64,000 bases of DNA from a virus (lineage: Duplodnaviria; Caudoviricetes), in IMG/VR virus record IMGVR_UViG_3300045257_000193, positions 357 to 64,356 of that record. One strand, given 5' to 3'. Below, in pieces: positions 3,575-62,119 of the stretch. A program made the translations under genes and the position numbers. A model generated the notes under the pieces. That model had not been told where the DNA came from, searched no databases, and saw only the letters and a list, made by a program, of their open reading frames with translations. How positions within the stretch are numbered: the stretch's first letter is position 1; the number at the start of each line of letters is the position of its first letter.

Positions 3575-3579
3575 TAATT

Positions 3580-3813
3580 ATGACAAAAGAAGAAATTACA
3601 TCGCAGGCAATAGTTGAAAATATAGGACAGGATGAACAAGATTCAGCCCTTACTATGTTTTCAGTAAAAATTCAAGATTCAGAATTTAAATATGGGATTG
3701 GAATTGATTTAGAAGCTGGCAAATCAAGACTAGATGGATTGAGTGAAAAAGAGCAATTTGAACTAGTAATTTCAGAAAATTTGAATGATATTTACGATAA
3801 GTTAAACCAATAA
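3580..3813 (+). CDS. Hypothetical acidic protein
   Basis: 77 aa ORF in operon after the fibre gene. Confidence 0.6.
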   Translation: MTKEEITSQAIVENIGQDEQDSALTMFSVKIQDSEFKYGIGIDLEAGKSRLDGLSEKEQFELVISENLNDIYDKLNQ

Positions 3814-3824
3814 ACAAACAGAAA

Positions 3825-11448: not shown

Positions 11449-11457
11449 TGTATATTA

Positions 11458-11605
11458 TTTGATTATTCCGAAGTAAATAATTAGTTTTGATTCAAGAATC
11501 GATCTGACACTATAGATTCAAAAAACATTAAAAGAATTGCCATTCTCAGAAAATTACCGAAGTCAGATCCGGTGAGAAGTACGTGGATGGCATCTTTATT
11601 TTATT
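11458..11605 (+). promoter_or_regulatory. Promoter plus two-hairpin kissing-loop leader 1
   Basis: TTTG(11458)-N20-TAGTTTTG(11482); loop GATCTGAC 11501-11508 complementary to loop GTCAGATC 11562-11569; stems GAATC/GATTC, TGCCAT/ATGGCA, TTCTC/GAGAA, ACCG/CGGT. Confidence 0.7.
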
Positions 11606-11791
11606 ATGGCAGAATATAAATTATCTGATTTCTACGACGAAGAAACAGTTGAAGAAATCAAGGATCAATCAGGTCTTGGCGATGCGGTTTTATTGCCAGC
11701 AGAAAATCTATCAGACCTTATGAAGGCGGAATTTTTATGTGAGATATTCAATAAATTCACACTTGCTCAATTGCAGGAAAAACTTAAATAA
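11606..11791 (+). CDS. Small acidic hypothetical protein
   Basis: 61 aa, first ORF after leader 1. Confidence 0.55.
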   Translation: MAEYKLSDFYDEETVEEIKDQSGLGDAVLLPAENLSDLMKAEFLCEIFNKFTLAQLQEKLK

Positions 11792-12218: not shown

Positions 12219-13001
12219 ATGGCAAACACAAATACGCACTCATTTAACATTGATGACGCTATAGAGTACGGTGTTCACGAAGCGATACTTCTTTATAATA
12301 TTACTTATTGGGCAAAATACAATAAGGCAAATGGTAAAAATTATTATGAAGTAGATCCAGAACAATATCCAAAACTGTCGGGTCAGAAAAGGTATTTCAC
12401 ATATAACTCCATAAAGGCTTTTAGTGAACTATTCCCTTATTTTTCTGTGGATCAAATAAGATTGATTATTAAAAAGCTTTGTGAAAAAGGCGTTTTAATA
12501 AAAGGTTGCTACAACAAATCTTCATACGATAGAACAATTTGGTATGCATTATATGACGAGAAGTCGATTGGGGTAATCACACAAGACCATTTGGTAGAAA
12601 TCCCAAATGAATTTGGTAGAAATCCCAAACCTATACCAGATATAAACACAGATGTAAACTCAGGTATAAATATCATATCTCGAACTATTGCTTTACTGAA
12701 TGAAAAATCAAATTCAAAATATCAGCCTACACGTAAAAGCACAGTTGCAGTAATTAAAGCAAGACTTGCCGAAAAGTTTACGGAAACAGATTTATCATTA
12801 GTTGTGGTTTCCAAAAGTAACCAGTGGTTAAATGATCCAAAAATGTCCGCATTCCTTCGACCAGAAACTCTTTTTGGCAATAAGTTTGAAGGATATTTGA
12901 ACGAAGCTTTGCGTGCGGCGGCAAAACCGAAAGGAACACAGGAATCAATACAAGACAAAGTAGCGGCGGCGGCGGCAACAAGTGAATTTAACCAGAAGTA
13001 A
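12219..13001 (+). CDS. Phage replication initiator (wHTH N-terminus, conserved phage C-terminal domain)
   Basis: YGVHEAILL..LCEKGVL..DRTIWY N-domain; FLRPETLFGNKFEGYLN C-domain; internal iterons. Confidence 0.8.
   Translation: MANTNTHSFNIDDAIEYGVHEAILLYNITYWAKYNKANGKNYYEVDPEQYPKLSGQKRYFTYNSIKAFSELFPYFSVDQIRLIIKKLCEKGVLIKGCYNKSSYDRTIWYALYDEKSIGVITQDHLVEIPNEFGRNPKPIPDINTDVNSGINIISRTIALLNEKSNSKYQPTRKSTVAVIKARLAEKFTETDLSLVVVSKSNQWLNDPKMSAFLRPETLFGNKFEGYLNEALRAAAKPKGTQESIQDKVAAAAATSEFNQK
12567..12672 (+). repeat. Iteron array, probable replication origin
   Basis: ATTTGGTAGAAATCCCAAA at 12589-12607 and 12611-12629 (22-bp period, degenerate copy at 12567); then three 12-bp repeats CAG(A/G)T(A/G)TAAA at 12637-12672. 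Confidence 0.7.
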
Positions 13002-13002
13002 G

Positions 13003-14934
13003 ATGGGTAAACTGAAATTTATACCGGTAAAGGATAAGATCCCTCAAGTTAAGGATTGGCAAACATCAACAGAAGATTTTGAAATAACCGGCGATCGCGG
13101 ACTTGTTACAGGGTTATTATCAGACAATCTAGAGGTTCTTGATTTTGATTTAAAGCACGAAGTAATTAAAGGCACATTAATGCCAGCGTATAAAGAAATG
13201 GTTTTGTCTTACGATAAAAACCTTTTAAGTCGCTTAACTGTACAAAAAACGGCAAACGGTGGATATCACTTTATGTACCGTTGTGAGGAAATTGAAGGGA
13301 ATTTAAAATTAGCATCGAGAGGAGTAACAACTGAAGAGAAGTTAATCAGTCCACATTTGAAGGTGATGGTGCTAATTGAGACTCGCGGACTTGGAGGACA
13401 GGTTGTTGTAAGTCCAACTCCTGGATATGAAATAATACAAGGTACTTTAGAAACAATTCCTACAATCACAGTAAAACAACGAGAAATATTAATTACCTGC
13501 GCCCGATCATTCAATGAGTTTGTAGAAGTTGTTAAGCATCAGACAATCCCAAACCCTAGCGGTATGGCAAGAATGTCCCCCTGGGAAGATTTCAATTTAA
13601 GGGGTGATACAGTATCTTTGCTTGAATCTTGCGGTTGGACTCATGTAATGACCAAAGGAAGTAAGATACACTTCAAAAGACCTGGTAGTACAGATGCATT
13701 AACGTCTGGTAATTACGACACAGAAAAGAATATGTTTTCTGTATTCTCCACATCCACGGAATTTGATATAAACAAGGGATATAAGCCATTTGCCGTGTAT
13801 GCGATGTTGAAGCATGGCAACGACGTTAAAGCAGCAGCAAGAGATTTGTATAACCAAAACTATGGAGAGCGCAACGAGTTTAAACCGGCAGAAGAATTAA
13901 AGCCAGCCCGAATTGTTGAGGATGACGACGACTTTAGTTTCCTTTCAGACGAGTCAGATATTGGTCAATACTTGGAACAGGTCCGGAATAATACGTTTGA
14001 ACTTGGTTTATGCATGGGTTCTGCTACTATCGATAAGTACCTTCGATATAAGCGTGGTAATCTCATGATGATAAACGGGTCTGACAACGTAGGTAAAACA
14101 ACTACAATTATCTGGCTGTACGTTCAGTGGTCAAAGGTAAATGGATTGAAATGGTTTATCTATACAACAGAAAATACCAACGGGTCGATAGCGGAGGACG
14201 TTATGGTTTTTTATATAGGTAAGAAATTAGATCAGTGTACTCCGGAAGAATTTTCTGAAGCTAAAAACTTCTTTAAAAAGCACTTCTTTCTGGTGAGACA
14301 AGTTGAAACATCTTTTGATTATGAAGAAGTGATCTTGATGGCCCGGAAAATGATAAGCAAGTACAGTATCGACGGCATGTTAATAGATCCTTTTTATAGT
14401 GTGCTTGGTGATATTAATGAGCAGAAGACGAGCGATCACGCATATCAGTATAAAGTTATAAGGGCTGTCAAATCATTTGGTCGAATGAACGGCGTTTCAA
14501 CATATATAAACATTCACTTAGCAACAGCCGCTTCACGTAAAGTAGATGCAGACGGCCATATGATTGCGCCTCAAAAGTCTGATTCTGAAGGCGGCAATAA
14601 GGGGTCTAACGTTGCTGACGAGTTCATTACTATACACAGAAAGACTCAGCACCCGGAACACTGGATGATAACTGAACTCCACGTTAGAAAAATTAAAGAG
14701 CGTAAAACTGGAGGTATGGTAACTCAAATGGATTCTCCAGTTATGCTAAGAATGAATAAGGATTTCTGTGGATTTACTGTAATCGGAGACGAGCAGAAGT
14801 ATGTGGAGCCTAAGAATAGTTTAAGTGAACGCACTCGAATATCTGGAAACGATAATTGGGTAAGTGAACAATCAGATACATTTCAGGACTGGTATAGTAA
14901 AATAGAGAAAGATGACGAGCCAGCACCTTTTTAA
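13003..14934 (+). CDS. Bifunctional Prim-Pol primase fused to SF4 (DnaB-like) helicase
   Basis: LEVLDFD, KTANGGYHF, IETRGLGGQVVVSPTPGY; Walker A GSDNVGKTT; Walker B MLIDP. Confidence 0.85.
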   Translation: MGKLKFIPVKDKIPQVKDWQTSTEDFEITGDRGLVTGLLSDNLEVLDFDLKHEVIKGTLMPAYKEMVLSYDKNLLSRLTVQKTANGGYHFMYRCEEIEGNLKLASRGVTTEEKLISPHLKVMVLIETRGLGGQVVVSPTPGYEIIQGTLETIPTITVKQREILITCARSFNEFVEVVKHQTIPNPSGMARMSPWEDFNLRGDTVSLLESCGWTHVMTKGSKIHFKRPGSTDALTSGNYDTEKNMFSVFSTSTEFDINKGYKPFAVYAMLKHGNDVKAAARDLYNQNYGERNEFKPAEELKPARIVEDDDDFSFLSDESDIGQYLEQVRNNTFELGLCMGSATIDKYLRYKRGNLMMINGSDNVGKTTTIIWLYVQWSKVNGLKWFIYTTENTNGSIAEDVMVFYIGKKLDQCTPEEFSEAKNFFKKHFFLVRQVETSFDYEEVILMARKMISKYSIDGMLIDPFYSVLGDINEQKTSDHAYQYKVIRAVKSFGRMNGVSTYINIHLATAASRKVDADGHMIAPQKSDSEGGNKGSNVADEFITIHRKTQHPEHWMITELHVRKIKERKTGGMVTQMDSPVMLRMNKDFCGFTVIGDEQKYVEPKNSLSERTRISGNDNWVSEQSDTFQDWYSKIEKDDEPAPF

Positions 14935-14984
14935 CCAAAACATTTGTATATATCAATTTAATAGTTTATTTTTGAATCAGAAAT

Positions 14985-15212
14985 ATGTATAGAGTCAACT
15001 TTACCTGCTGGGTCAAACCAAACCCGCTCAATAAAAAACCGGATGTATCAGATTGTATTTCATACTGGTATGAAGAAGTTGGAAATGATATTGAGCAGCT
15101 TAAAGCAAATGCGCGGAAAGCGTGGGGAGAAAATAAAGGTCCAAAGAGATTTAGGCTTTCACAAATAGTGAAAGGCGGAACTGACATACTGATTGAAGAA
15201 CATAACATTTAA
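14985..15212 (+). CDS. Hypothetical protein
   Basis: Follows a TATTTTTG box near 14967. Confidence 0.55.
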   Translation: MYRVNFTCWVKPNPLNKKPDVSDCISYWYEEVGNDIEQLKANARKAWGENKGPKRFRLSQIVKGGTDILIEEHNI

Positions 15213-15215
15213 ACA

Positions 15216-15611
15216 ATGGAATTGATAAAAACAAAGATGGGTAGGGTTGGTAACAACAAGAAATACGAGAATAAATTATTTATGTCAATCCAGCAAACGC
15301 GAGGAACAATGACTGATGATACAGCTAAATTTCTTGGCATTGAAACAGTTGGAATGATAGCGTTTTTTAGGAATGAAGGGAAAATATACATTAGTGTAGC
15401 TAAACTTGGCGATGATGTTTCAGATTACAAAAAAGTTGCAAGAGTTAACGGAAGATTTGGAATGTACACCAAGTCGCTCTGTTCATCTTATGGAGCAATT
15501 AAAGCAGGTGATTACGAAATAAAGATTCCGCCAGTTTCGGTTAATGGGAAAGATTGTTACGAGTTAAAGGTGATCAAGTATAAGCCAAAAAGTAAGGTTA
15601 AAAATAAGTAA
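15216..15611 (+). CDS. Hypothetical basic protein
   Basis: 131 aa ORF in operon. Confidence 0.55.
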   Translation: MELIKTKMGRVGNNKKYENKLFMSIQQTRGTMTDDTAKFLGIETVGMIAFFRNEGKIYISVAKLGDDVSDYKKVARVNGRFGMYTKSLCSSYGAIKAGDYEIKIPPVSVNGKDCYELKVIKYKPKSKVKNK

Positions 15612-15615
15612 AATC

Positions 15616-15851
15616 ATTTCAGCCAAGTATAGTACCTTCGAGTACGTGAGGCTGGGATAAAAACTATCTGCTGAAGATAAACATCCGCTACAAGAGAATG
15701 TGACGTGGAAGTGCTGCTAAGGGCACGTTGTTTATTGTAAGATAAAGTGATTAAAGGTAATGAGTAAGAAACATGTAAAAGTAGTTCTCTCAAACTCCTA
15801 GCGCATTCAGAGTTGCGGCTTTATTCCACTTAGAAATGGACAGATAGTTTT
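15616..15851 (+). ncRNA. Candidate structured ncRNA (~240 nt, multi-stem, possible pseudoknot)
   Basis: ORF-free gap; ATTTCAGCC/GGCTGGGAT hairpin; 11-bp closing helix AAAACTATCTG/CAGATAGTTTT enclosing several further stems. Confidence 0.6.
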
Positions 15852-15863
15852 AATTTATAAAAT

Positions 15864-16196
15864 ATGCCAACACCCTGCCCCAAGCCAGAGAAGCGACAAC
15901 CGAAAGAGAAGAAGCCGCTGAAGCGCGTAGGTAAACCTAATCTAGTTTCCAGTAAACGTATGATTCAGAATGCTGAGTACAAAATCGCAAGAGAAGAATA
16001 CCTTTCGGAATACGTTGTGTGTGAAGTGAAAGAATGCATGCATCCATCGGAACAAATTCACCATAAAAAAGGTCGGACAGGCAGTTTGTTGACAGATAAA
16101 AGATTCTTTCTAGCCGTATGTGCTTACTGTCATGCAGAGATCGAGAATAAGCCTGAATGGGCTAAGAAAATGGGGTATAGTTTAAATAGAATATAG
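15864..16196 (+). CDS. Small Zn-binding HNH nuclease with basic N-terminus
   Basis: CEVKEC..QIHHKKGR..LAVCAYCH. Confidence 0.75.
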   Translation: MPTPCPKPEKRQPKEKKPLKRVGKPNLVSSKRMIQNAEYKIAREEYLSEYVVCEVKECMHPSEQIHHKKGRTGSLLTDKRFFLAVCAYCHAEIENKPEWAKKMGYSLNRI

Positions 16197-16573
16197 TGAT
16201 CAGTAAAAAACCAGTAGCTAAGCGCAGCAAATACGGAAACGTAAAGACAGAATACAGCGGATATAAATATGATTCAAAAGCAGAGGCGCTGTATGCCCAA
16301 CATCTTGATTTAAGAATACGAGCCGGAGAGGTGGAAAAATGGGATCGCCAGGTAGTTGTTCATTTGGATATAGGCAAGGTTAAGATTTGTAAATACATAG
16401 CCGACTTTGTTGTAACGCTTAAAGACGGGTCGGTAGAATGGATTGATGTAAAAGGAGTTAAAACTTCTGTATTCCAAATAAAGCATAAGTTATTAAAGGC
16501 ATTAAGGCCTGATATAAAATTAATACTTATAGAAAAGAAGAAGCCGGCAAAGAAAAATATTAAAAAGAAATGA
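16196..16573 (+). CDS. DUF1064-family PD-(D/E)XK endonuclease
   Basis: SKYGN..YDSKAEA..KYIADF..IDVKG. Confidence 0.8.
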   Translation: MISKKPVAKRSKYGNVKTEYSGYKYDSKAEALYAQHLDLRIRAGEVEKWDRQVVVHLDIGKVKICKYIADFVVTLKDGSVEWIDVKGVKTSVFQIKHKLLKALRPDIKLILIEKKKPAKKNIKKK

Positions 16574-18523: not shown

Positions 18524-18787
18524 ATGGCAAAGATGTTCATACCATACATGGGTAAGTTAGATGGAAGTGCATTTGTTCCTTGCTCAGATATAAAATTGAA
18601 AACCAAGAAAAGGCTGAATAGAAAAGCTTGGTTATTTTATAAAAATAAACCATTAGGCAGACTATCCAGAGCTATGTTTGTTTCAGCAATTGAATATGAT
18701 CTTGCTATTTTAGAGCAACCGCTTAGAATAAAAATGAACAAACTAGTTTTAGATACATTGCTTGATGGATATATAATTGGTAGATAA
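18524..18787 (+). CDS. Hypothetical protein
   Basis: ORF in operon. Confidence 0.5.
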   Translation: MAKMFIPYMGKLDGSAFVPCSDIKLKTKKRLNRKAWLFYKNKPLGRLSRAMFVSAIEYDLAILEQPLRIKMNKLVLDTLLDGYIIGR

Positions 18788-19344
18788 TGGAGCAGGAAGA
18801 AGAAGTAAGAGAGGTGATGATTGAAGGGTATCCGGATTACGGAGTGGATACCCTTGGGAACGTTTGGTCGTATAAGAAGGGTATTAGAAAGAAACTAAAC
18901 CATACAATTGGATCGCATGGATATCCATATATTTCTACATCGGTAAAAAGTGTAGTAAAGAAATTTACAATTCACCGTCTCGTTGCTAAAGCATTTCATG
19001 AAAATCCGGAGAGCAAACCAATGGTTAACCACATAAATGGAATAAAAACCGACAATAGGGCAATCAATTTAGAGTGGTGTAATAATAGTGAGAATTTAAG
19101 GCATGCATATCGTGTAATGAAGGTTGTTCCACACAGTGTAGGAAAGTTTGGCGTTTTGCACCACAATTCTAAGCCAATAATTCAAATGACTAAGAATGGT
19201 GAATTTGTAGCGGAACATGCGGCAATAGCTGAAGCTGCAAGACATATAGGATTAAGTCACACATCTATAATCAAAGTACTATCAGGTAAAGGTTCAACTT
19301 GTGGAGGGTTTACGTGGAAATACAAGGAGGTGACTAGTGTTTAA
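18787..19344 (+). CDS. NUMOD4-HNH-NUMOD1 homing endonuclease
   Basis: IEGYPDYGVDTLGNV; IHRLVAKAF; [18 protein letters not shown]; GGFTWKY. Confidence 0.9.
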   Translation: MEQEEEVREVMIEGYPDYGVDTLGNVWSYKKGIRKKLNHTIGSHGYPYISTSVKSVVKKFTIHRLVAKAFHENPESKPMVNHINGIKTDNRAINLEWCNNSENLRHAYRVMKVVPHSVGKFGVLHHNSKPIIQMTKNGEFVAEHAAIAEAARHIGLSHTSIIKVLSGKGSTCGGFTWKYKEVTSV

Positions 19345-34843: not shown

Positions 34844-37800
34844 TTATTTATTTGTCCTTTGATTAATTTGAGAATACAAGTTCAGATACCTAAGACGGAA
34901 TAAGCTATCCCCATCGTAACGGAAAGTAACATTGAACAAGTGAGAACTAATAAGGTTGCCTTCCCACTTGCTCAATCCGGATGAAGTATCTCCCGGAACA
35001 TCACATTGCCAATCTTTATTTATACGTTCAAAGGCACCATTCTCAATTGTTGTAATCTGGCCATCTTGGTTAGTGATTGACTCACACCAAAGAGGCGTGT
35101 CGCTTTCCTGAGATATAAAGTTGGCTATCTTCTGCATATTTGGTTCTGCATTAAATATAACCTCAATACGGCTAGGATATTTTACACCATAGAAAGTATT
35201 AACCGGACCTGCTTCATGTTTATACATCTTACCATCCTTAAAAGTGTAAAGCTGCAGCTGAATATAAGCGAACTGCTCAGGAAGGAAACTAAAGAAAGAT
35301 GACCATGTATTTGGGTAATCCTGACTTGCCGGATCAATGAATCCTATATTTTCATCATCAAATCTAAAGTATTGAGTTCTAAACTTTGGGTCAAACCCGG
35401 TAAAGCATCTATCCGAAACTTTGTTATAGAAATATGATCGCGCTTTGTAGTTACCGGATATATCGAATATGCTGTTGAATGTGTTATATCTTAAAGCGCA
35501 CCCTTTTAGCTTGCTCCAGAAATAAATATAGTCATCATATTTGTTCACTGATTCGGGGTTAACGCAGCCATATCCACCAGGCAGCTTTCTTGCTGAGTTC
35601 AATAGGTGATCTGATATGATAAGGTTATCGCTTCCATCCGCATTCGCAAGCATGGCTTTATTAACATATACAAGCGCTGCTTCCTGCTCACAATTTATAA
35701 GAAGTATTTGTTCTTGGGAAGTCATCTTTCTGATAGCACCCCATGTATAATCTAATTGATATGAGTTAAAGGAATAGAATGTACTTGTTCCATTAATACT
35801 TGCCCCATCAATATATCTGTCTGAATATCGAATGGTGTCCCTTCTTCTTGTTTGTCTTTCACCGTCAAGTAAAACAACGTTTGGCCTACCATTAGCCTTC
35901 TCCCATATTCCAGCTCTATTTAAGTTATCCGGACTCATAGAGAAGAAAGGATATTGAGAATAGCCTCTGCCTAAACTAAAGTCAATTACGCCTCTTTTTC
36001 TATAATTTATTCTAATGTCCTTAGCGTACATTGGAGCATACATCATATAATGCGTGTCCCCTTCAAATATACTGAACGAGGTTTTAGAATATTGTCTCAG
36101 ATCGGTTTTAGAATTATTTATAGGATAACAATCGCCATATTCATAAAAGAATATATCATCTGATCCAGTATGAGGTGTATATATTTCAATAAATGCACCT
36201 GACCCTAAAATATTATCTTCCAGCAATCTTTGGTCGAATTTAACTTTAAGGTATCTACCCTCAACAAAATCCTTTATTTCAAGATCAAGAATACCTGAAT
36301 ATGTTCCAGTGCTAGAATAGTAAATATTTAATCTATCTCCTGATTGAAAAACGTATGGAGTTTCACAAGAGGGGTTGTATACTTGTCTTGCAACGGTATT
36401 CGTACTATTAAATTGGTTTTCTTCAAAGTTGGTTGTATTGTTCCAGTTATAAATATCTATTAGAATATCAACAGCTGAATCAAGCCCTGCTTTAGAGAAT
36501 TCATTTATTTTCTCCCCTCTACGGTTAACTCCGCCTACATATATTGCGGTCCCGTCAGGGGAGTATCCAATTATATAATCATTTTCATCACTATTAAATG
36601 GAACACTATCTGGCGTTCCTGGCCAAGTATAGTGTTGTACTGGCTTATATCTAGCTTGAGTAAATATTAAACCAGCTTGGTTATAGTTTCCTCCGGCACT
36701 TTTTGCCCAATATGTTACCTCTTTGTATATTGGCTTATCAGTATCGCTAAGGCCATATTCATATACTGGAAGTGGGCTACTCCAATCATTCCCATCAGCA
36801 ATCATGTTGTTTACCCGTCTTTCTCCTGGAGTTGCGCCAAGCGGAGGTAAATAAAGAGTTACATTTTCTTTTGTTTGTGCAGCGGCAGTTCCAATTACTT
36901 TTCTTATGAAAGATGGATTACCATTAGAGTCATAGCCAGATACATATAGGATATCATTCGTAATACCCTGTACAAATCTTGTAACTTTATTATTGTTTGT
37001 TCTAACAATTTGATAATGTGTTGCCCATTCTGGCGGAGATCCAGCGATATCAAAGTCAAAACACCAAACTTTCTCCTTGTCACCAGCCCTATAATCCGGA
37101 GGTGTTAAAACTTTTAATCGTTGGTCTGTGTAAACGCCCGACTTTTGTCCAAACTCATTATAAAAAACAAGGCCTATTTCATATTTAGAATTATTCTTCC
37201 ATACCATGAAATTCCCAACTAATTCTGCTTGGCTAGGTCCTGTAATTGTATCGGTAAAATAATCTACACTTTTTCTTCCCTGACTAACATTTCCAATAAC
37301 CAAATTAAATTCAGCAAACCCTTCAAGCGTGTTTCCTATAAGATTTCTATTATCTACTGTTTCAATAGTTTCACACGGCCAAATATCATCATATGGCCGC
37401 TCAGTATCAGTTGGTGCTATTACGCTAAAAGATAAATCATTTCTAAATTGTACAGATAAATCTTCATTACTGCCATATACGGACAAATCAGTATCGGATA
37501 ATATTAATTGATCCCATTCAGTCTGATTGATAACTTCATCTACTTTAGTTCTTTTAAATAATTTAAAAGGCCCTAAATATGTATTTGCGTATGCAAAATC
37601 TATATATTTAATCTTTGTATTATAGTAAAGTCCGTCAATACCTCCAGCTCTAAAGACCCTAAACTCATTGATTTTAAATTGAGAATAAATGGCATCATCT
37701 AAAACTAGCGTAGTATATTTACTGCTAACTAGTTTAGAATAAGGTGACCAAGAGCTTTGTTGCCCATTGTCATATACAAATCGATATATGAAATAGTAGT

Positions 37801-38341
37801 TTTCTTTCCGGTAAAAATTAGTATTAACAACTCCAGTTTGCTGCAATTGTATTTGCAAAGGAAACGTGGGTGGAGTTTTTATTAAAGACATATCAAACTC
37901 AATTGGATCAAATAAAAATTCCAATACGTTTATTTGTCTTGGGTATTTAGATCCACCTTCAGTCCATGTAAGTAAGTTGTTTATAAGCGTTACGGAATGA
38001 ATGATCAAGTCTGATTCCCACCCCAAATTGCCAATAACTAATTGAGTAAAATTAGTGCCATCAAAAACACTTATCGAGTCGTTATTATTTGAATTCCAAG
38101 TAAAAACGTATATTTTATTTTTTGATGTATCAGAATACTTACCTATTGTTTTATTATCCCCAGGCGCAAGTGCATTTGGAATCTCGACATTACCCAATAC
38201 CGGTTCGATAATACCATCTTTACTATTGTTTACAATATTTACCCTACAGTTTTCAACTCTTCTAGAAAATGTTTTGTCTACACCTTCATCAGCAGTATCA
38301 AAATCCATTCCGATTACAACTCTTTTATCCTGTAGATTCAT
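34844..38341 (-). CDS. Tail stabilisation/muzzle protein (P22 gp10-like, crAss-like)
   Basis: GMDFD..GNVEI N-terminus, FIYRFVYDNGQQSSWSPYS, YEIGLVFYNEFGQKS, GGYGCVNPES, WSSFFSFLPE, NTFYGVKY. Confidence 0.8.
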   Translation of the reverse strand: MNLQDKRVVIGMDFDTADEGVDKTFSRRVENCRVNIVNNSKDGIIEPVLGNVEIPNALAPGDNKTIGKYSDTSKNKIYVFTWNSNNNDSISVFDGTNFTQLVIGNLGWESDLIIHSVTLINNLLTWTEGGSKYPRQINVLEFLFDPIEFDMSLIKTPPTFPLQIQLQQTGVVNTNFYRKENYYFIYRFVYDNGQQSSWSPYSKLVSSKYTTLVLDDAIYSQFKINEFRVFRAGGIDGLYYNTKIKYIDFAYANTYLGPFKLFKRTKVDEVINQTEWDQLILSDTDLSVYGSNEDLSVQFRNDLSFSVIAPTDTERPYDDIWPCETIETVDNRNLIGNTLEGFAEFNLVIGNVSQGRKSVDYFTDTITGPSQAELVGNFMVWKNNSKYEIGLVFYNEFGQKSGVYTDQRLKVLTPPDYRAGDKEKVWCFDFDIAGSPPEWATHYQIVRTNNNKVTRFVQGITNDILYVSGYDSNGNPSFIRKVIGTAAAQTKENVTLYLPPLGATPGERRVNNMIADGNDWSSPLPVYEYGLSDTDKPIYKEVTYWAKSAGGNYNQAGLIFTQARYKPVQHYTWPGTPDSVPFNSDENDYIIGYSPDGTAIYVGGVNRRGEKINEFSKAGLDSAVDILIDIYNWNNTTNFEENQFNSTNTVARQVYNPSCETPYVFQSGDRLNIYYSSTGTYSGILDLEIKDFVEGRYLKVKFDQRLLEDNILGSGAFIEIYTPHTGSDDIFFYEYGDCYPINNSKTDLRQYSKTSFSIFEGDTHYMMYAPMYAKDIRINYRKRGVIDFSLGRGYSQYPFFSMSPDNLNRAGIWEKANGRPNVVLLDGERQTRRRDTIRYSDRYIDGASINGTSTFYSFNSYQLDYTWGAIRKMTSQEQILLINCEQEAALVYVNKAMLANADGSDNLIISDHLLNSARKLPGGYGCVNPESVNKYDDYIYFWSKLKGCALRYNTFNSIFDISGNYKARSYFYNKVSDRCFTGFDPKFRTQYFRFDDENIGFIDPASQDYPNTWSSFFSFLPEQFAYIQLQLYTFKDGKMYKHEAGPVNTFYGVKYPSRIEVIFNAEPNMQKIANFISQESDTPLWCESITNQDGQITTIENGAFERINKDWQCDVPGDTSSGLSKWEGNLISSHLFNVTFRYDGDSLFRLRYLNLYSQINQRTNK

Positions 38342-41375: not shown

Positions 41376-44300
41376 ATGCCAGAAGCAGTAATACAAAGAG
41401 CGGATCAATATCTAGCAGACAAATTTAATAACGGTGTTTTAACACCTGATAAATCAGCCGCATTAGTTGCGAATCCTGAGGTATATAATAATGCATTGGC
41501 TAAAATGTATACCGATAAATATTCAGGATCATTTGAAGATTTTGACAAGTTTAAATCCGCATATCAATCCCAATACGGTGATCCTTTTAAAAAAAAAGAA
41601 CCATCGGCACCCTCTTCAACAGAAAAAAAGGTACAGAGCTTCGATACAAAGCAGAGAATACAGCAACCATTGACGACAGCTCTTCAGGAGGCAGCTACGC
41701 CAACACAAGAAACGTCTTTAGAGAATTATGTAACGCCATCCGACGGGGCACAATTAGCTACATTCCAAACTGGTGGAGAAAGAAAACAGATTCCTGTAGC
41801 CGATGCATTACAACCATTAAGCACGCAATCAAAGCAGCAAGAAGCGGATGCACTGCGTTCCGAACAGTATTCAAAAGGGCTTTTGCAGAATACCAATCAG
41901 GCACCTACGACAGCAATACCGAAGACTGATTTTTCTGTCGCATCAGAATCAACAGTCCCACAAATAAATAAGCCATTAACATTTGATGAAGCCAAGAATT
42001 TATCTTTTGGCAATGTACCGACTGTTATGGATGAAGCTTTAGGTTCGGCAAACGAATTTCTTGCCCCCTTAAACAAGGCTGTATATGATGCAATACCTCA
42101 AGCAGTACTTACATTAAATAATATTGCTGGATATGGAGCAGAAAAGTTCACAGGAACGCCATCACCATATACTTTTGAGGAATATAATAAAGCCTACGAC
42201 AATTCGTCTCCTATGGGGAAGGCCGCAATGTGGCTAACCGGAATCAAAGAAGCTACAATGTGGCATGATTTTAATGAAGAAAATATGTCCGCTTCTCCTG
42301 AATTTGAGCAAAGTATTTTAGGTGGGGTTAGTTCTGGATTAGGCCAAGGAATTACTATGATCGCCGGGACTGGCGCCGTAAATATGCTTAGTAAAGGTAA
42401 GCAATTATTGGATGCAGCAAAATATGCCAATGCATTATCAAAATCAGGATCAATTATAGGCGCAGGTGCTCAGGCGGCTAAAACGATTGCTACACAACCA
42501 GCAACATACGTTGCCGCATCACAAGTATTCAATTCTGAATTTCAAGATGCTTATAATCAAACAGGTAATGCCGATGCTGCTTTTAAGTCCGCAGTAATAA
42601 ATACTGTTGGGTCAGCTGGTCTTGAAGCTATGCCTATTATGTCATTTATGGGTAGGCTAGATAAAGTAACTGGGGGAGGATTAAAACAAACATTAATAAA
42701 CGGATTTAAGGGTGGTCTTGAAGAAGCAACAACTGAGGTTTTGCAGCAAGCGTTATCAAATATGGTAGCATCCAATTTGTATGATGACACCAGAAATATT
42801 ACTGATGGCATGGTTCAATCAGGCGAAGTTGGAGGGTTGACCGGATTTGCATTGAATATTATAGGCGCATCCCTTGGAGCTAAACTAAGAGCAACAACGG
42901 ACCCATATGAGGCTCAGGAAATAAAGAAGACTCAAGAATATGTTCAAGCAAAAAAGGATTTATTTGATAAAGAGCAAGAACAGATAGTCGCAAATATGGA
43001 AAATCAGATAATATCAATGAATACTACTGAAATGCAAAAACAACTAAATGTAGAGAATATAACACCTAAAGAATTTTCCAATGTAATGCAGGTTATGCAA
43101 ACTATGCCTAACTCAGAAGCAATTACGCCTAAAACTGTAGGGGTTACAAATAAGATCAATGGCTTATTAGTTGAAAAACAAGATATATATTCTAACGTAT
43201 TAAGCGTTGAGCAACAAGAGGTAGCAGATAAAAGAGCTGAAAAAATAGATACAGAAATAAGAGATCTTACAAATACTATTGGTGAGATATATGCTAACCC
43301 ATCCAAAAAACAAATAGAAGAAAATGATAATAAAATTGGGCAACAAGTTCCAGGTGAAGAGCGAATCGGGCAAGAATCTGAGCAAGCCAAACCTATCGAA
43401 ACAACAAGCGGAACGGAGACTGAAACAAGTCGAGATATTCAAGCACATGAAGAAGTAGCTCCTAATCAGGAAGAGGATTTGACCGACCCTGAAGTAATTG
43501 CTACTAAATATCATGAAGAACGAACAAATCCGGTACATATTACCCCAGCAGAACGCGCTATTGCAGACTTGTTAAGATCGGGTGTATCCAAAGAAGGAGT
43601 TAGAAGACAAGGTGATGTTAATAAATTTAATAACTCCATGGCGCGCGCTTATTTTAAAGAAGGTGCAAATACTATTGATCAGGTAGCACAGCAAGCAAGC
43701 AGCACTATCAATCCGGAAGGTGATGGAAATGAAGTTACCCCGGAAGATGTGTGGGATTTTATGAATAAATACCCACAAGGTCCCGACCAAATTGATAGAC
43801 CAGCGGGAAATCCAAGATTAAGGGAATTATCCGATAAATACGAAGAGGTAACAGGCAAGCAGTTAAATAAAACAATAGCTAAAAAAATAGCTGAGGCGAA
43901 ATCAACACCACCTCAAAATATTAAAGAAGATCCTAACTCAGTAATTGATAAATATACGGATGAGAATGGGGATGTAAAGTTAGATGAACTTGAAAAAGAT
44001 ATATCGGCATTACCGTTCCTATATGATTTAACACCAGAAGAAACTAAAATAGTAGAAAATTATGTCAAAGAGAGCAGAAAAGCTGACCGAACTAGTAGCG
44101 AAAGCACTAGCGCAATACCGGTTGAACAACCCGAAAGAAAAACAACCATTGCCGACAAATCAGAAACCATCCGCGAAATAAAGGATAAGAAGCTAACCCA
44201 TGTAAAGGGAGTGGCAATGGGCAGCGGAGTTGCAAAAGGTACCTATTTAAGCACCGAGAAAGGCAATAGATACCAAGGCCGTGGTAAAAAGTTCAATGCT

Positions 44301-47300
44301 GATGTAAATATTAAAAATCCATATACTACATCAGAGAATAATCTGAATAAAGAGCGTGGGGATGTGCTCAAAAGCAATATCAATCAATTCTCCGAAACAG
44401 ATTTTGAAGGCGCAGAAATACCTCCCAATCCAATAATAGATGACTTGAGTAACTCCGGCACTGAAAAACTAGCGGACTTATTCACAAAGAACTTACAGGA
44501 TCAAGGATATGATTCTATGTACTTCCCGGAAAGTAAAACCCAGGAAGGCGAACTTGTCGTATTTGACAAAGGTAAAGTAACATTAACAGAAGATCCCGAA
44601 ATTACGGATGCTATGAAGATGTCGCGTGAGGCATATGATCAGAAATATCCAGAAGGTAATTATGATGAAGCACGCGCTGAATATACAAAAGATACAGAAA
44701 ATCTACAGGAGGCTAATAAAAAAGGAGAAACTTTAGAAGGAGTTATCCTAATGGAGAAAGGCTTTTTGAAAGCAGTTCCAATGGACACACGTTTCAAAAA
44801 AGGTACAGACAAGTTAAAGCAAGCATGGATCAAGGCAACAAGAGTTGGCGGCGCTATTCCATTTGATCTCGTTTTCAACTATTCCTATATACGAAAAAAT
44901 ACTATCGCTCAAAAGATTGAAGAAGTTGAGCATACAATGAAACAGGTAGAAAAATCTATTACTAAACACCTTGGGGGTAAAAGCAAAGTTACAAAAGAAC
45001 AATTAGTAGCTATCGACCATGTATTACACGGGGAGACGCCTTCTATAATTCTTCCTTCTGAAGTATTAGCTGAAGTTTCAACATTAAGAAGTGTTATTGA
45101 TGGATTATCACTTGAAATGAAAAACTCTGGGATGCTTTCAGATTCAATGCAAGCAGTTATTGATCAGAATATGGGTACATACCTGAATCGTTCATATAAG
45201 AAGTGGAATGATCCAGTATGGAAAGAGAATGTTCCGGAAGAAACGATGAATAAAGCTGTTGCTTATCTTAAAAATGAGTACATCAAATTTTATACTGCCA
45301 AATATCAAAAGTCTCAGGAGGCGTTTAAAAATAAGGATAAGCGCATTCGTGATTTCAGAACTACTATTGCAAACAAGCAATCTAAAGTTGATGAAAATAA
45401 TGCCAAATTAGCTGAATATAAATCCAAACATGATGCATATATAGCTAAGATCGACAATAAGATAAAGTCATTAAAGAAACGCCCAAATAAAGAGCAAGTA
45501 GGCCCTGATTTATCTGGCAAAACCAAGCAGACAAAACACGAAGGTAAAATAGCGTATCTTGAAGCAGTTAAAGCTGATTCTATTAAAGACTTCAATTCTA
45601 TATACGATACTAAAAAATCTCAATTTGATAAGCAGAATGCAAAAATAGAGGCCGCCATAGCTAAAGCTGAGAATGCAGCATATAATATGCAGCAGAAAAA
45701 CTATCCGGAAGTAATGAAGGAAAGTTTGGATAAGTTTACAAGCCCTGACGATGGGGAAATAAGCGCACTTATCAATCAAATCCTTTATGCGCCAACGGAT
45801 AATATCAACCCAAGTGGTAAAGCCGGAGCAATATCAGGATCATTCTTAAAGCAGCGTAGTGAAAGATTAAATCAAAGTCCAGAGATAAGAGAATTAATGG
45901 GTGAATATCAAGACCCATATATTAACTTCTTGTCTACGGCAAATAAAATGATTACTTCTATTCAGAACTATACTTTCCAGAAGCAATTAAAGGCTCAAGG
46001 AATGGGTACTATATTCTCTGATAAACCAACAGGTGATTTCCACCGACAAATTGAAGGGGATGCATGGAAAGGATTAATAGAAGATGGTGATGTATACACT
46101 ACAGAAACATTTGAAGCGGCATTAAAAGAACTAAACGGAATGATTCAGCAGGATATGAGTCCTGGAATGAAAACATTTAGGGCTATCGTATCCTTAGTTA
46201 AAGTAGGCAAGACTGCAGCGTCTGCTCCAGGAGCCGTAGCCAATTATATTTCTAACGTATCAAATATTGTTAGTAATGCATGGAATCCTACGTATGCAGC
46301 AAAAAAATGGGTTCAGTTAAGTAGACCACAATTAGTAGAAGAGATAAAAGATCTAAAAAAACTAGGTATTTTAGGGCAAAGTGTTTCTGGTAGAGAGTTA
46401 GCTGATCGTATTAAAGATACAGCTGGATATGTGCCTTTTGAAACTTATTTAGAATCGGTACCCGGATTAGACATTTTCTCAAAAGGAATAAAAGGTATAG
46501 TTTCTGGCAGTAAAAAGATATTTGAGGTTGGTGATGAATACGCCCGCGTTATTGGATTCTATGCAGAGGTTGAAAGATATCGTACAGTTCATACAGATTG
46601 GACCGAAACTCAATTACGTGATAATGCAGCTAAGATTGTATCCAATAATTCGCCAACATACGATCTGGCCTATCCATGGGTTAAAAACTTCAGAAATTCT
46701 CCTTGGTTCTCAACATTTGCGACATTCCCTGCAGAGATTTATAGGACAACCACAAATCAAGCATATCAAATTAAGAAAGACCTATCCAAGTCTGAAACAA
46801 GGGCTATCGGCGTAACGAGATTAGCCGGAATATTAACTTCAATGGGTTTTGGAGCTTATCAGATTATGCAAATGGCAACCACCATGATTAGCGGGGATGA
46901 TGAAGATGAAAGGGATTTAAGATTATTTGTTCCTGAGTATTCAAAATTTAATCCATTGCTATTATATAGAAAAGATGGTGACGAATACACATATACTGAT
47001 GCCGGCAGATTTACATACTATAACAATTTCATATCTCCAATTATAGCTTTCTCAAATGGAGATATAGAAAAAGAGGAATTTGATTCAAGAATATATAATT
47101 CCATTGGACAGATGTTACAGCCATTTACTGATATAAATATTGTCACAGAAGCGGGTGCTGATATTGCATTTGGATATAAGTCTGGTACCGATGAAAAAAT
47201 ATATAGCGAAAATGATTCAAATACAGAAAAACTACGTAAAATATCTGAGCATATCGGGAATAAACTGGAACCAACAAATGTTAAGGTGGGCCGCAGCTTT

Positions 47301-47744
47301 TATGATTTAGCAGTATACGGTAAGACAAAACACGGGTCAGAAGTAACGCTAGAAACTGCTGCATTAAGCGCATTTGGGGTTAAATCAAGAGTCCTAAATG
47401 TTACAAAGCAATTTACATATCAATTTTATACTCAAAAAGAGCAAGGTGATTCGGATAAAAATGCATTTGAGAGATCATATAAAAATGCCAGATCTGAAGA
47501 AGAAAAATCTAAAGCAATTGAAATTTACAAGACGCAAGTTGTAAATCAAATAAATAAAATGTCTTATCTTTATCATGCAGCTTTAAGACAAGGGGCAAAC
47601 TTAGCAGAAATTAATAAGCATACTGCTAAAATGCCTCAATTAATTAAAGTTGGCATTAGAACAAATAGTGGATTATACGATCCTAATAAGGCAGCAGATA
47701 TTTTAATAAAAATGTACATTAAAGATTTAACCAATAAAAAATAA
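41376..47744 (+). CDS. Large polyvalent ejected protein with ART-like domain
   Basis: 2122 aa; Gly/Ala-rich membrane-inserting segment (EEATTEVLQQ); H..GTYLS..GYDSMYF..ELVVFD ART-like region; YLNRSY and FATFPAEIYRT large-polyvalent-protein motifs. Confidence 0.7.
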   Translation: MPEAVIQRADQYLADKFNNGVLTPDKSAALVANPEVYNNALAKMYTDKYSGSFEDFDKFKSAYQSQYGDPFKKKEPSAPSSTEKKVQSFDTKQRIQQPLTTALQEAATPTQETSLENYVTPSDGAQLATFQTGGERKQIPVADALQPLSTQSKQQEADALRSEQYSKGLLQNTNQAPTTAIPKTDFSVASESTVPQINKPLTFDEAKNLSFGNVPTVMDEALGSANEFLAPLNKAVYDAIPQAVLTLNNIAGYGAEKFTGTPSPYTFEEYNKAYDNSSPMGKAAMWLTGIKEATMWHDFNEENMSASPEFEQSILGGVSSGLGQGITMIAGTGAVNMLSKGKQLLDAAKYANALSKSGSIIGAGAQAAKTIATQPATYVAASQVFNSEFQDAYNQTGNADAAFKSAVINTVGSAGLEAMPIMSFMGRLDKVTGGGLKQTLINGFKGGLEEATTEVLQQALSNMVASNLYDDTRNITDGMVQSGEVGGLTGFALNIIGASLGAKLRATTDPYEAQEIKKTQEYVQAKKDLFDKEQEQIVANMENQIISMNTTEMQKQLNVENITPKEFSNVMQVMQTMPNSEAITPKTVGVTNKINGLLVEKQDIYSNVLSVEQQEVADKRAEKIDTEIRDLTNTIGEIYANPSKKQIEENDNKIGQQVPGEERIGQESEQAKPIETTSGTETETSRDIQAHEEVAPNQEEDLTDPEVIATKYHEERTNPVHITPAERAIADLLRSGVSKEGVRRQGDVNKFNNSMARAYFKEGANTIDQVAQQASSTINPEGDGNEVTPEDVWDFMNKYPQGPDQIDRPAGNPRLRELSDKYEEVTGKQLNKTIAKKIAEAKSTPPQNIKEDPNSVIDKYTDENGDVKLDELEKDISALPFLYDLTPEETKIVENYVKESRKADRTSSESTSAIPVEQPERKTTIADKSETIREIKDKKLTHVKGVAMGSGVAKGTYLSTEKGNRYQGRGKKFNADVNIKNPYTTSENNLNKERGDVLKSNINQFSETDFEGAEIPPNPIIDDLSNSGTEKLADLFTKNLQDQGYDSMYFPESKTQEGELVVFDKGKVTLTEDPEITDAMKMSREAYDQKYPEGNYDEARAEYTKDTENLQEANKKGETLEGVILMEKGFLKAVPMDTRFKKGTDKLKQAWIKATRVGGAIPFDLVFNYSYIRKNTIAQKIEEVEHTMKQVEKSITKHLGGKSKVTKEQLVAIDHVLHGETPSIILPSEVLAEVSTLRSVIDGLSLEMKNSGMLSDSMQAVIDQNMGTYLNRSYKKWNDPVWKENVPEETMNKAVAYLKNEYIKFYTAKYQKSQEAFKNKDKRIRDFRTTIANKQSKVDENNAKLAEYKSKHDAYIAKIDNKIKSLKKRPNKEQVGPDLSGKTKQTKHEGKIAYLEAVKADSIKDFNSIYDTKKSQFDKQNAKIEAAIAKAENAAYNMQQKNYPEVMKESLDKFTSPDDGEISALINQILYAPTDNINPSGKAGAISGSFLKQRSERLNQSPEIRELMGEYQDPYINFLSTANKMITSIQNYTFQKQLKAQGMGTIFSDKPTGDFHRQIEGDAWKGLIEDGDVYTTETFEAALKELNGMIQQDMSPGMKTFRAIVSLVKVGKTAASAPGAVANYISNVSNIVSNAWNPTYAAKKWVQLSRPQLVEEIKDLKKLGILGQSVSGRELADRIKDTAGYVPFETYLESVPGLDIFSKGIKGIVSGSKKIFEVGDEYARVIGFYAEVERYRTVHTDWTETQLRDNAAKIVSNNSPTYDLAYPWVKNFRNSPWFSTFATFPAEIYRTTTNQAYQIKKDLSKSETRAIGVTRLAGILTSMGFGAYQIMQMATTMISGDDEDERDLRLFVPEYSKFNPLLLYRKDGDEYTYTDAGRFTYYNNFISPIIAFSNGDIEKEEFDSRIYNSIGQMLQPFTDINIVTEAGADIAFGYKSGTDEKIYSENDSNTEKLRKISEHIGNKLEPTNVKVGRSFYDLAVYGKTKHGSEVTLETAALSAFGVKSRVLNVTKQFTYQFYTQKEQGDSDKNAFERSYKNARSEEEKSKAIEIYKTQVVNQINKMSYLYHAALRQGANLAEINKHTAKMPQLIKVGIRTNSGLYDPNKAADILIKMYIKDLTNKK

Positions 47745-61881: not shown

Positions 61882-62035
61882 CTATGTTATATATTATTTT
61901 TATATATTATTATAATTTGTAATCATTCTAAACAAAATGATCTATTTAACATAACGTAACGCCTTAGAATCGCCTGTATAAAAATAATGTGTACATATAT
62001 ACGGTGTATACGCCTGTATAGCGTTGTTCACGGAG

Positions 62036-62119
62036 TGCGTTAAGGATAGTAGCGGAACTCCTTTTTGCCTTCGAACAAAAAGAGTGGGAGCGGATAGCCT
62101 GACCTGCAAGGGAACGCCC
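62036..62119 (+). ncRNA. Flavo-1-like structured Bacteroidota repeat/RNA element
   Basis: GCGTTAAGGATAGTAGCGGAACTCCTTTTTG..CAAAAAGAGTGGGAGCGGATAGCCTGACC..GGAACGCCC matches the motif as I remember it; not verified by search. Confidence 0.55.

Follow-up and report, generated by a model that had tools for sequence, protein, structure and literature searches.

A conserved stem-loop beside a phage-specific spacer in an intergenic gap of an uncultured phage

The DNA analysed here, hereafter the window, is a stretch of 64,000 nucleotides that covers nearly all of an uncultured phage contig (IMG/VR virus record IMGVR_UViG_3300045257_000193; 64,356 bp, linear, ~60% complete). On its + strand, Pfam/PHROG profile searches identified a Phg_2220_C protein upstream of a Prim-Pol/helicase gene (12982-14934), which is followed by a 75-aa ORF and then by a 131-aa ORF (15216-15611, + strand). 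The latter has no Pfam or PHROG match, but has homologues in the related loci L003 (64% identity) and L005. A search of viral contigs with the 131-aa ORF returned only the contig of L003, and tblastn against cultured phages returned no match. After a gap of 252 nt (15612-15863) comes a 110-aa HNH-like ORF (15864-16196, + strand), which matches PHROG 7108 (E 7.6e-11) and PHROG 740, 'HNH endonuclease' (E 3.2e-5). The PHROG 740 match and a CxxC...HH...CxxCH pattern visible by eye agree with the HNH label that an earlier note on this DNA had given to the ORF, whereas no Pfam family at E<=10 and no PDB profile lends it support. Further 3', the + strand carries a DUF1064/resolvase-like ORF, a metallophosphoesterase, small ORFs, an HNH_3/NUMOD homing endonuclease and the large terminase.

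The distant cultured relatives of the Prim-Pol protein are Cellulophaga phages, and those of the HNH-like ORF are Flavobacterium phages. No relatives of the Prim-Pol protein were found in prokaryote genomes. When the whole window was scanned with cmscan at gathering scores, the sole match was a full-length Flavo-1 RNA motif (RF01705) at 62035-62108 (+ strand), with 48.4 bits against a gathering score of 42. Together, the two groups of cultured relatives and the Flavo-1 motif suggest a host of the Flavobacteriia type. The function of Flavo-1 is not established, and the presence of this host-type RNA motif on a phage contig may merit a study of its own.

A 55-nt block upstream of the gap (14950-15004), spanning the sequence just 5' of the 75-aa ORF and extending into it, is 100% identical to positions 11-65 of L003, whereas the flanking genes are only ~64-80% identical. 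Inside this block, at 14967-14974, lies TATTTTTG, which fits the Bacteroidota -7 promoter word. The block is likely to represent the promoter and leader of a small operon.

The gap itself contains no + strand ORF of at least 20 aa. Its description in the earlier note as the only large ORF-free gap was overstated, because similar gaps lie at 3575-3824 and 11449-11738 when ORFs of at least 90 aa are listed; the second of these holds only ORFs of 46-61 aa. The earlier note read nearly the whole gap as one multi-stem, possibly pseudoknotted RNA of ~240 nt, consisting of a 5' hairpin followed by an 11-bp closing helix with several smaller helices inside, and suggested an unclassified non-coding RNA, a ribozyme or an RNA associated with the HNH nuclease. 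The 3' end proposed for this RNA does lie 12 nt 5' of the HNH ATG. As detailed below, the small 5' hairpin is conserved, strand-specific and absent from Rfam, whereas the large RNA is unsupported.

The conserved hairpin module occupies ~51 nt (15611-15661, + strand), as defined by CM R1, pair counts and RNAalifold. Its 5' part is the single-stranded AAAUCAUU, and the hairpin proper starts 4 nt past the stop codon of the 131-aa ORF. A variable basal stem of 9 bp (15616-15624 with 15650-15658) is followed by an AAG/A internal loop and by an apical part with the order UAU-A-GUAC, loop, GUAC-GUG. The apical part is invariant over 25 nt in the three distinct sequences available (window, L005/L006 and L088), the invariant set comprising AAG, UAU, A, GUAC, the loop, GUAC, GUG and A, with two U-G pairs. 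The 5' hairpin thus folds at 15616-15658 as the earlier note had drawn it, U-G pairs included, and taken alone it has a folding z of -2.22.

Alignment of the three hairpins shows that 47 of the 48 cells of the 16 pairs are paired (97.9%); in a control in which the partners were slid by 1-3 columns, pairing drops to 20-56%. Three of the nine basal pairs have changed on both sides (C-G/U-A/A-U, G-C/A-U and A-U/G-C), and four further pairs show a one-sided change via G-U. The covariation is modest, with 13-22 of 500 shuffles of the three sequences reaching the observed values. When RNAalifold was applied unguided to the three whole gaps, it returned exactly these 16 pairs and no others. Compensatory change that keeps base pairs was found in the hairpin only, in its basal stem and over three sequences.

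The hairpin is also strand-biased. With RNA parameters, the + strand is more stable than the - strand by 2.1-2.7 kcal/mol in all three sequences, in agreement with the earlier remark that the G-U pairs favour the + strand. Under DNA parameters the hairpin reaches only about -4 kcal/mol, which is weak, and the two strands do not differ.

No Rfam family matched the hairpin or any other part of the gap, either at gathering scores or at E up to 10 (cmscan of 15300-16300 and 15600-15870), and no tRNA or tmRNA was found. A canonical intrinsic (rho-independent) terminator was considered and rejected, because no U-tract follows the hairpin in the window, L005 or L088, where the sequence 3' of it is GAUAAAAACU, AGUAAUAAUC and UAUAUUGUAA, respectively. 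A terminator scan of the gap gave one weak 5-bp site (15711-15726), no more than shuffles yield.

To collect relatives, we ran protein-guided scans of viral contigs, which gave 80 loci with HNH-like relatives and 19 with Prim-Pol relatives. When the window gap was compared with 85 loci by blastn and nhmmer, only its first 52 nt matched, in L005/L006 (85% identity, E 2e-9). A scan of metagenome contigs with the exact apical pattern added L088, a 1.4-kb A+T-rich contig, whose hairpin agrees with that of the window over all 25 nt of the apical part and in the 5' flank AAATCATT; the two basal stems differ completely. The L088 hairpin lies just past a stop codon, and the contig is ORF-free from there to its end. 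The fourth instance comes from X2, a 405-nt DNA contig of a close relative. Hence, the hairpin set consists of three distinct sequences plus the one from X2, four instances in total, and the module recurs in three further phage lineages (L005/L006, L088 and X2). CM R1, a covariance model of the hairpin, scored 82.6 bits for the window, 83.8 for L005/L006 and 72.8 for L088, and found a single copy per phage record (G000, G004, G005).

Over ~1.1 Mb of fetched loci, R1 detected no further member. Among the 19 Prim-Pol-relative loci only the L005/L006 contigs matched, and the 16.5-kb record of L003 has no hairpin. The exact apical pattern was found among viral contigs only in those of L005/L006, and gave 0 matches in genomes of 185,579 species. 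Looser patterns retrieved 59 viral stretches, 57 of them new; none fits R1 at E<=1, and by eye they are unrelated sequence. A looser-pattern match in Hymenobacter was rejected as well, being apparently coding sequence with a broken basal stem. Among cultured phages, blastn with 15216-16573 and with the 62-nt hairpin gave no match. The pattern scans of the collections were exact only, so divergent members may exist. Within the data reached, the hairpin family is real but rare.

L089, the other contig that the metagenome scan returned, was treated as unrelated, since it shares the apical part only and is a repeat-rich contig. Within its positions 780-1210 a palindromic word of the type GTAC-TCTAGA-GTAC is repeated many times, and one of the copies equals the apical 24 nt except for one mismatch. 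The repeats may form an iteron-like array belonging to some unrelated replicon.

The hairpin sits where close relatives differ. X2 matches the window at 15475-15595, continues with 123 other letters, matches again at 15611-15661 with 1 difference and then diverges, the next 110 letters being unlike the window. L003 keeps the order of the 75-aa, 131-aa and HNH-like genes, but only 2 nt separate the stop codon of its 131-aa homologue from the HNH ATG, which means that the whole gap is absent. In L005/L006 (HNH 78% identical, Prim-Pol about 80%), the 131-aa homologue is followed by a 273-nt gap, then by an extra 138-aa ORF and only then by the HNH gene; beyond the first 52 nt their spacer cannot be aligned with that of the window. 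The sequence adjoining the hairpin is different in each lineage. The extra ORF (2085-2501 in L005) has an acidic tail and no Pfam family, is absent from the window and from L003, and resembles an insertion of the moron type into the same hotspot.

A comparable location is known for the promoter-early stem-loops (PeSLs) of T4-type phages, which combine a strong sigma70-like promoter with a terminator stem-loop and are present many times in each genome, in hyperplastic regions (Arbiol et al. 2010, PMC2839356). Like them, the module is a short conserved intergenic stem-loop, located at the borders of segments that have been inserted, deleted or replaced between close relatives. It differs from PeSLs in being single-copy, in lacking a U-tract and in showing no promoter-like motif of the kinds searched for. 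PeSLs are the nearest described analogue of a conserved stem-loop module at indel boundaries.

The position of the gap directly 5' of the HNH-like ORF, with the proposed RNA ending 12 nt from the ATG, had prompted the suggestion of a guide or scaffold RNA, or a ribozyme, working with the HNH nuclease in the manner of the HEARO/omega RNA of IscB, which likewise is non-coding DNA 5' of an ORF with HNH-like residues. The comparative data contradict this reading. The partner of HEARO/omega RNAs contains RuvC, HNH and PLMP and has about 400-500 aa, whereas the protein here has 110 aa, no RuvC or PLMP and no Pfam domain. In addition, an Rfam match is missing even at E up to 10, RNA and gene do not co-occur in a conserved manner and the RNA body is unconserved. 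HNH relatives almost never have an upstream gap: in the 74 scored of the 80 loci the median is -1 nt, and only 4 of the 74 have at least 150 nt (with a crude gene caller). Among the closest relatives, L003 and L002 lack the spacer, and L005/L006, the only ones of the 80 HNH-relative loci with R1 matches, carry an intervening gene. Conversely, the sole conserved piece of the gap occurs without a nearby HNH gene in L088, where it adjoins unrelated ORFs that have no relative in the window or the loci and no Pfam family. Since neither hairpin nor gap is linked to the HNH gene among homologues, the idea of a nuclease-associated RNA is refuted, and we leave it with next to no probability. The HNH-like ORF is an ordinary neighbour of the gap, not its partner.

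The HNH-like gene itself looks mosaic, with a recombination joint inside it. Its first ~21 codons (15864-15926 in the window, 621-683 in L003) are nearly identical in the two phages, whereas the rest of the protein is only ~46% identical.

The remainder of the gap behaves differently from the hairpin. An 11-bp perfect inverted repeat, with its left arm (AAAACTATCTG) at 15660-15670 and its right arm (CAGATAGTTTT) at 15841-15851, is present as the earlier note had reported and extends to 14 nt at 93% complementarity. Its occurrence is nevertheless within chance expectation, the window containing 10 perfect inverted repeats of at least 11 bp within 250 nt against 7.5 +/- 2.5 expected from Markov simulations. 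The sequence between the arms (15671-15840) is a spacer specific to this phage; it has no homologue, and its folding does not rise above chance. The short complementary words that had been proposed to form its helices can all be read from the sequence, namely CCGC (15685-88) with GCGG (15815-18), AGAGAA (15693-98) with TTCTCT (15785-90), GACGTG (15702-07) with CACGTT (15724-29), and, also in the gap, TTTAT/ATAAA, AACTC/GAGTT, TCCA/TGGA and the crossing pair GAATGTG/CGCATTC. However, the nested architecture built from them has an energy of -42.8 kcal/mol, which is 19 kcal/mol above the MFE of the whole gap (-61.8 kcal/mol) and also above the mean MFE of shuffles.

The whole gap folds somewhat better than shuffles (z -2.29, 3 of 200 shuffles as good; z -2.21, 10 of 300), while the interior does not (z -0.29, 118 of 300 shuffles fold as well). 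For the stretch 3' of the hairpin, the strands give nearly the same z (+ strand -2.25, - strand -2.30). Because the two strands are equal and the interior is at chance, the signal downstream of the hairpin comes from the 11-bp repeat alone. The many small helices of the spacer are of the kind that a 170-nt A+T-rich sequence yields by chance.

No match to the interior was obtained by blastn, tblastx or nhmmer, whether in 173 loci (1.1 Mb) or elsewhere in the window, and local alignment of the spacer with those of L005 and L088 stayed at chance level (160, 336 and 328 of 500 shuffles). Two resemblances noticed by eye, a mini-hairpin with a TAGAAA loop and a colinearity of GAGTA-GAAAC/CATTCA between the window and L005, were supported neither by local alignment against shuffles nor by RNAalifold. 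A decayed gene at 15659-15863 was also considered and rejected, because tblastx and blastn yielded no match with E below 0.01 in the 173 loci or elsewhere in the window. Within 15612-15863 we found no iterons and neither a sigma70-like site nor TANNTTTG, a Bacteroidota -7 motif; these consensuses may not be those of this phage or its host.

The inverted repeat invites the reading of 15657-15854 as a small non-autonomous, MITE-like element inserted beside the hairpin. Terminal inverted repeats are indeed present (11 bp perfect, or 14 nt at 93%, within chance for the window), the left edge coincides with the point at which X2 diverges (15661), and L003 lacks the whole gap. However, no target-site duplication is visible at the edges, and the gap segment has no second copy in the phage record. 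A scan for the pattern of the repeat arms found none in viral contigs; in the genomes of 185,579 species it returned 5 matches, all with unrelated interiors, three of which are long palindromes less than 80 nt from a contig start. Moreover, X2 past its breakpoint lacks the right flank of the window and is thus not an empty site. We regard such an insertion as highly improbable.

An orphan non-coding RNA, whether it comprises the entire gap, comprises only the 192 nt that the 11-bp helix closes, or starts with the hairpin as the 5' handle of fast-evolving RNAs, would account for the z of about -2.2 of the whole gap and for the stretch of at least 205 nt without a sense-strand ORF that follows the hairpin in all three sequenced cases. 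Yet the interior folds like shuffles and the closing helix is within chance expectation. The three spacers lack homologues and resemble one another neither in structure nor in local sequence, the L005 gap (z -0.92) and the L088 stretch (z -0.41) fold no better than shuffles, and L003 does without a gap. With nothing 3' of the hairpin kept in sequence or structure, the single large RNA of the earlier note does not hold, and we consider an orphan RNA of any of these forms distinctly unlikely.

One variant starts from the hairpin. The module might be a new, horizontally exchanged RNA 'handle' that binds a protein and marks the 5' end of non-coding RNAs with variable bodies. The handle occurs in phages without detectable shared proteins, whose genomes are otherwise tightly packed. 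In the crAss-like phage phi14:2, abundant long non-coding RNAs of unknown function are reported to arise from intergenic regions (bioRxiv 10.1101/2020.03.07.982082). Together with the ORF-free stretches after the hairpin, such transcripts make a handle of this kind conceivable, if quite unlikely.

We favour, with moderate confidence, an explanation in which the gap is not one RNA but has two parts, a conserved hairpin module acting on the transcript and a phage-specific spacer. From the invariant apical 25 nt combined with a freely covarying basal stem, as expected for a hairpin recognised by a protein or an enzyme, we infer that the module works as RNA and in cis, as a recognised signal at a module boundary. 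In the transcript, the hairpin would lie where the replication-gene cluster ends and the next cluster starts, and it could be a processing site, a hairpin protecting a 3' end, or a termination or antitermination signal, resembling T7 RNase III sites or a site of the boxA-boxB type. A recombination or indel hotspot would start at the 3' edge of the hairpin, and the ~200 nt of spacer (15662-15863), together with the 11-bp repeat, would be a product of recombination at this boundary. Two observations weigh against the two-part explanation. Folding of the complete gap remains somewhat better than that of shuffles, and the ORF-free stretch of at least 205 nt in all three sequenced cases means that the hairpin could be the 5' portion of a longer non-coding unit that evolves fast, instead of a stand-alone signal.

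RNase III sites of phage T7 number about ten per genome and lie between cistrons; after processing, the upstream message retains a hairpin that protects its 3' end. They are likewise irregular sense-strand hairpins of ~45-60 nt, in which an internal loop separates a lower from an upper stem. The difference is that the hairpin described here occurs once per record, which speaks against a T7-like reading. We know of no RNase III dependence in this host group. The nut sites of lambda (boxA plus boxB) and the put sites of HK022 are antitermination RNAs that act in cis on the transcript and occur once or twice per genome. As in these, the module consists of a small hairpin whose apical sequence is conserved, immediately preceded on its 5' side by a conserved single-stranded word. 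Unlike them, the module lies ~650 nt from the nearest promoter-like block instead of immediately downstream of one; moreover, it does not resemble them in sequence, and neither an N-like nor a Q-like protein was identified.

A role at the DNA level is a serious rival. The hairpin might act as DNA, extruded or single-stranded, and be recognised by a protein that serves replication, recombination or nicking; repeated recombination would then explain the variability next to it. The module is ~680 nt 3' of the Prim-Pol/helicase gene, both its flanks are variable in X2 and its downstream flank is different in every lineage, as at a recombination or cassette boundary. A GTAC...GTAC apical palindrome is also present in the repeat-rich contig L089. 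On the other side are the weakness and strand symmetry of the hairpin under DNA parameters, the conserved U-G pairs, which favour one RNA strand, and its sense orientation just past a stop codon in all three cases with readable context. Furthermore, no HUH-type or other hairpin-nicking enzyme was found among the scanned neighbours, and the gap lacks iterons. A DNA-level role therefore appears unlikely to us.

With the HNH-guiding RNA or ribozyme removed as a candidate, what is left is a conserved stem-loop absent from Rfam, common to unrelated uncultured phages of soil and other metagenomes. If the hairpin, in our preferred reading, is a processing or antitermination signal, it would be among the first cis-acting RNA signals described for this Bacteroidota-type phage group, and a useful landmark of module boundaries. 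With four instances, its reach is limited for now.

Two other regions of the window deserve mention. At 18524-19344 (+ strand), between a DnaA_C-like gene and the large terminase, there are an 87-aa ORF and an HNH_3/NUMOD-like homing endonuclease (185 aa) whose gene overlaps the start of the terminase. In L003 and L005 the terminase directly follows the DnaA_C-like gene. The region looks like a free-standing homing-endonuclease insertion. The second region contains two large ORFs. One of 2122 aa (41376-47744, + strand) was considered as a virion RNA polymerase of the crAss type, but it is not recognisable as one: it lacks a DFDxD motif and matches nothing in Pfam or PDB. The other, of 1165 aa (34844-38341, - strand), contains a crAss muzzle-protein C-terminal domain (E 1.3e-6), and the phage may be distantly crAss-like.
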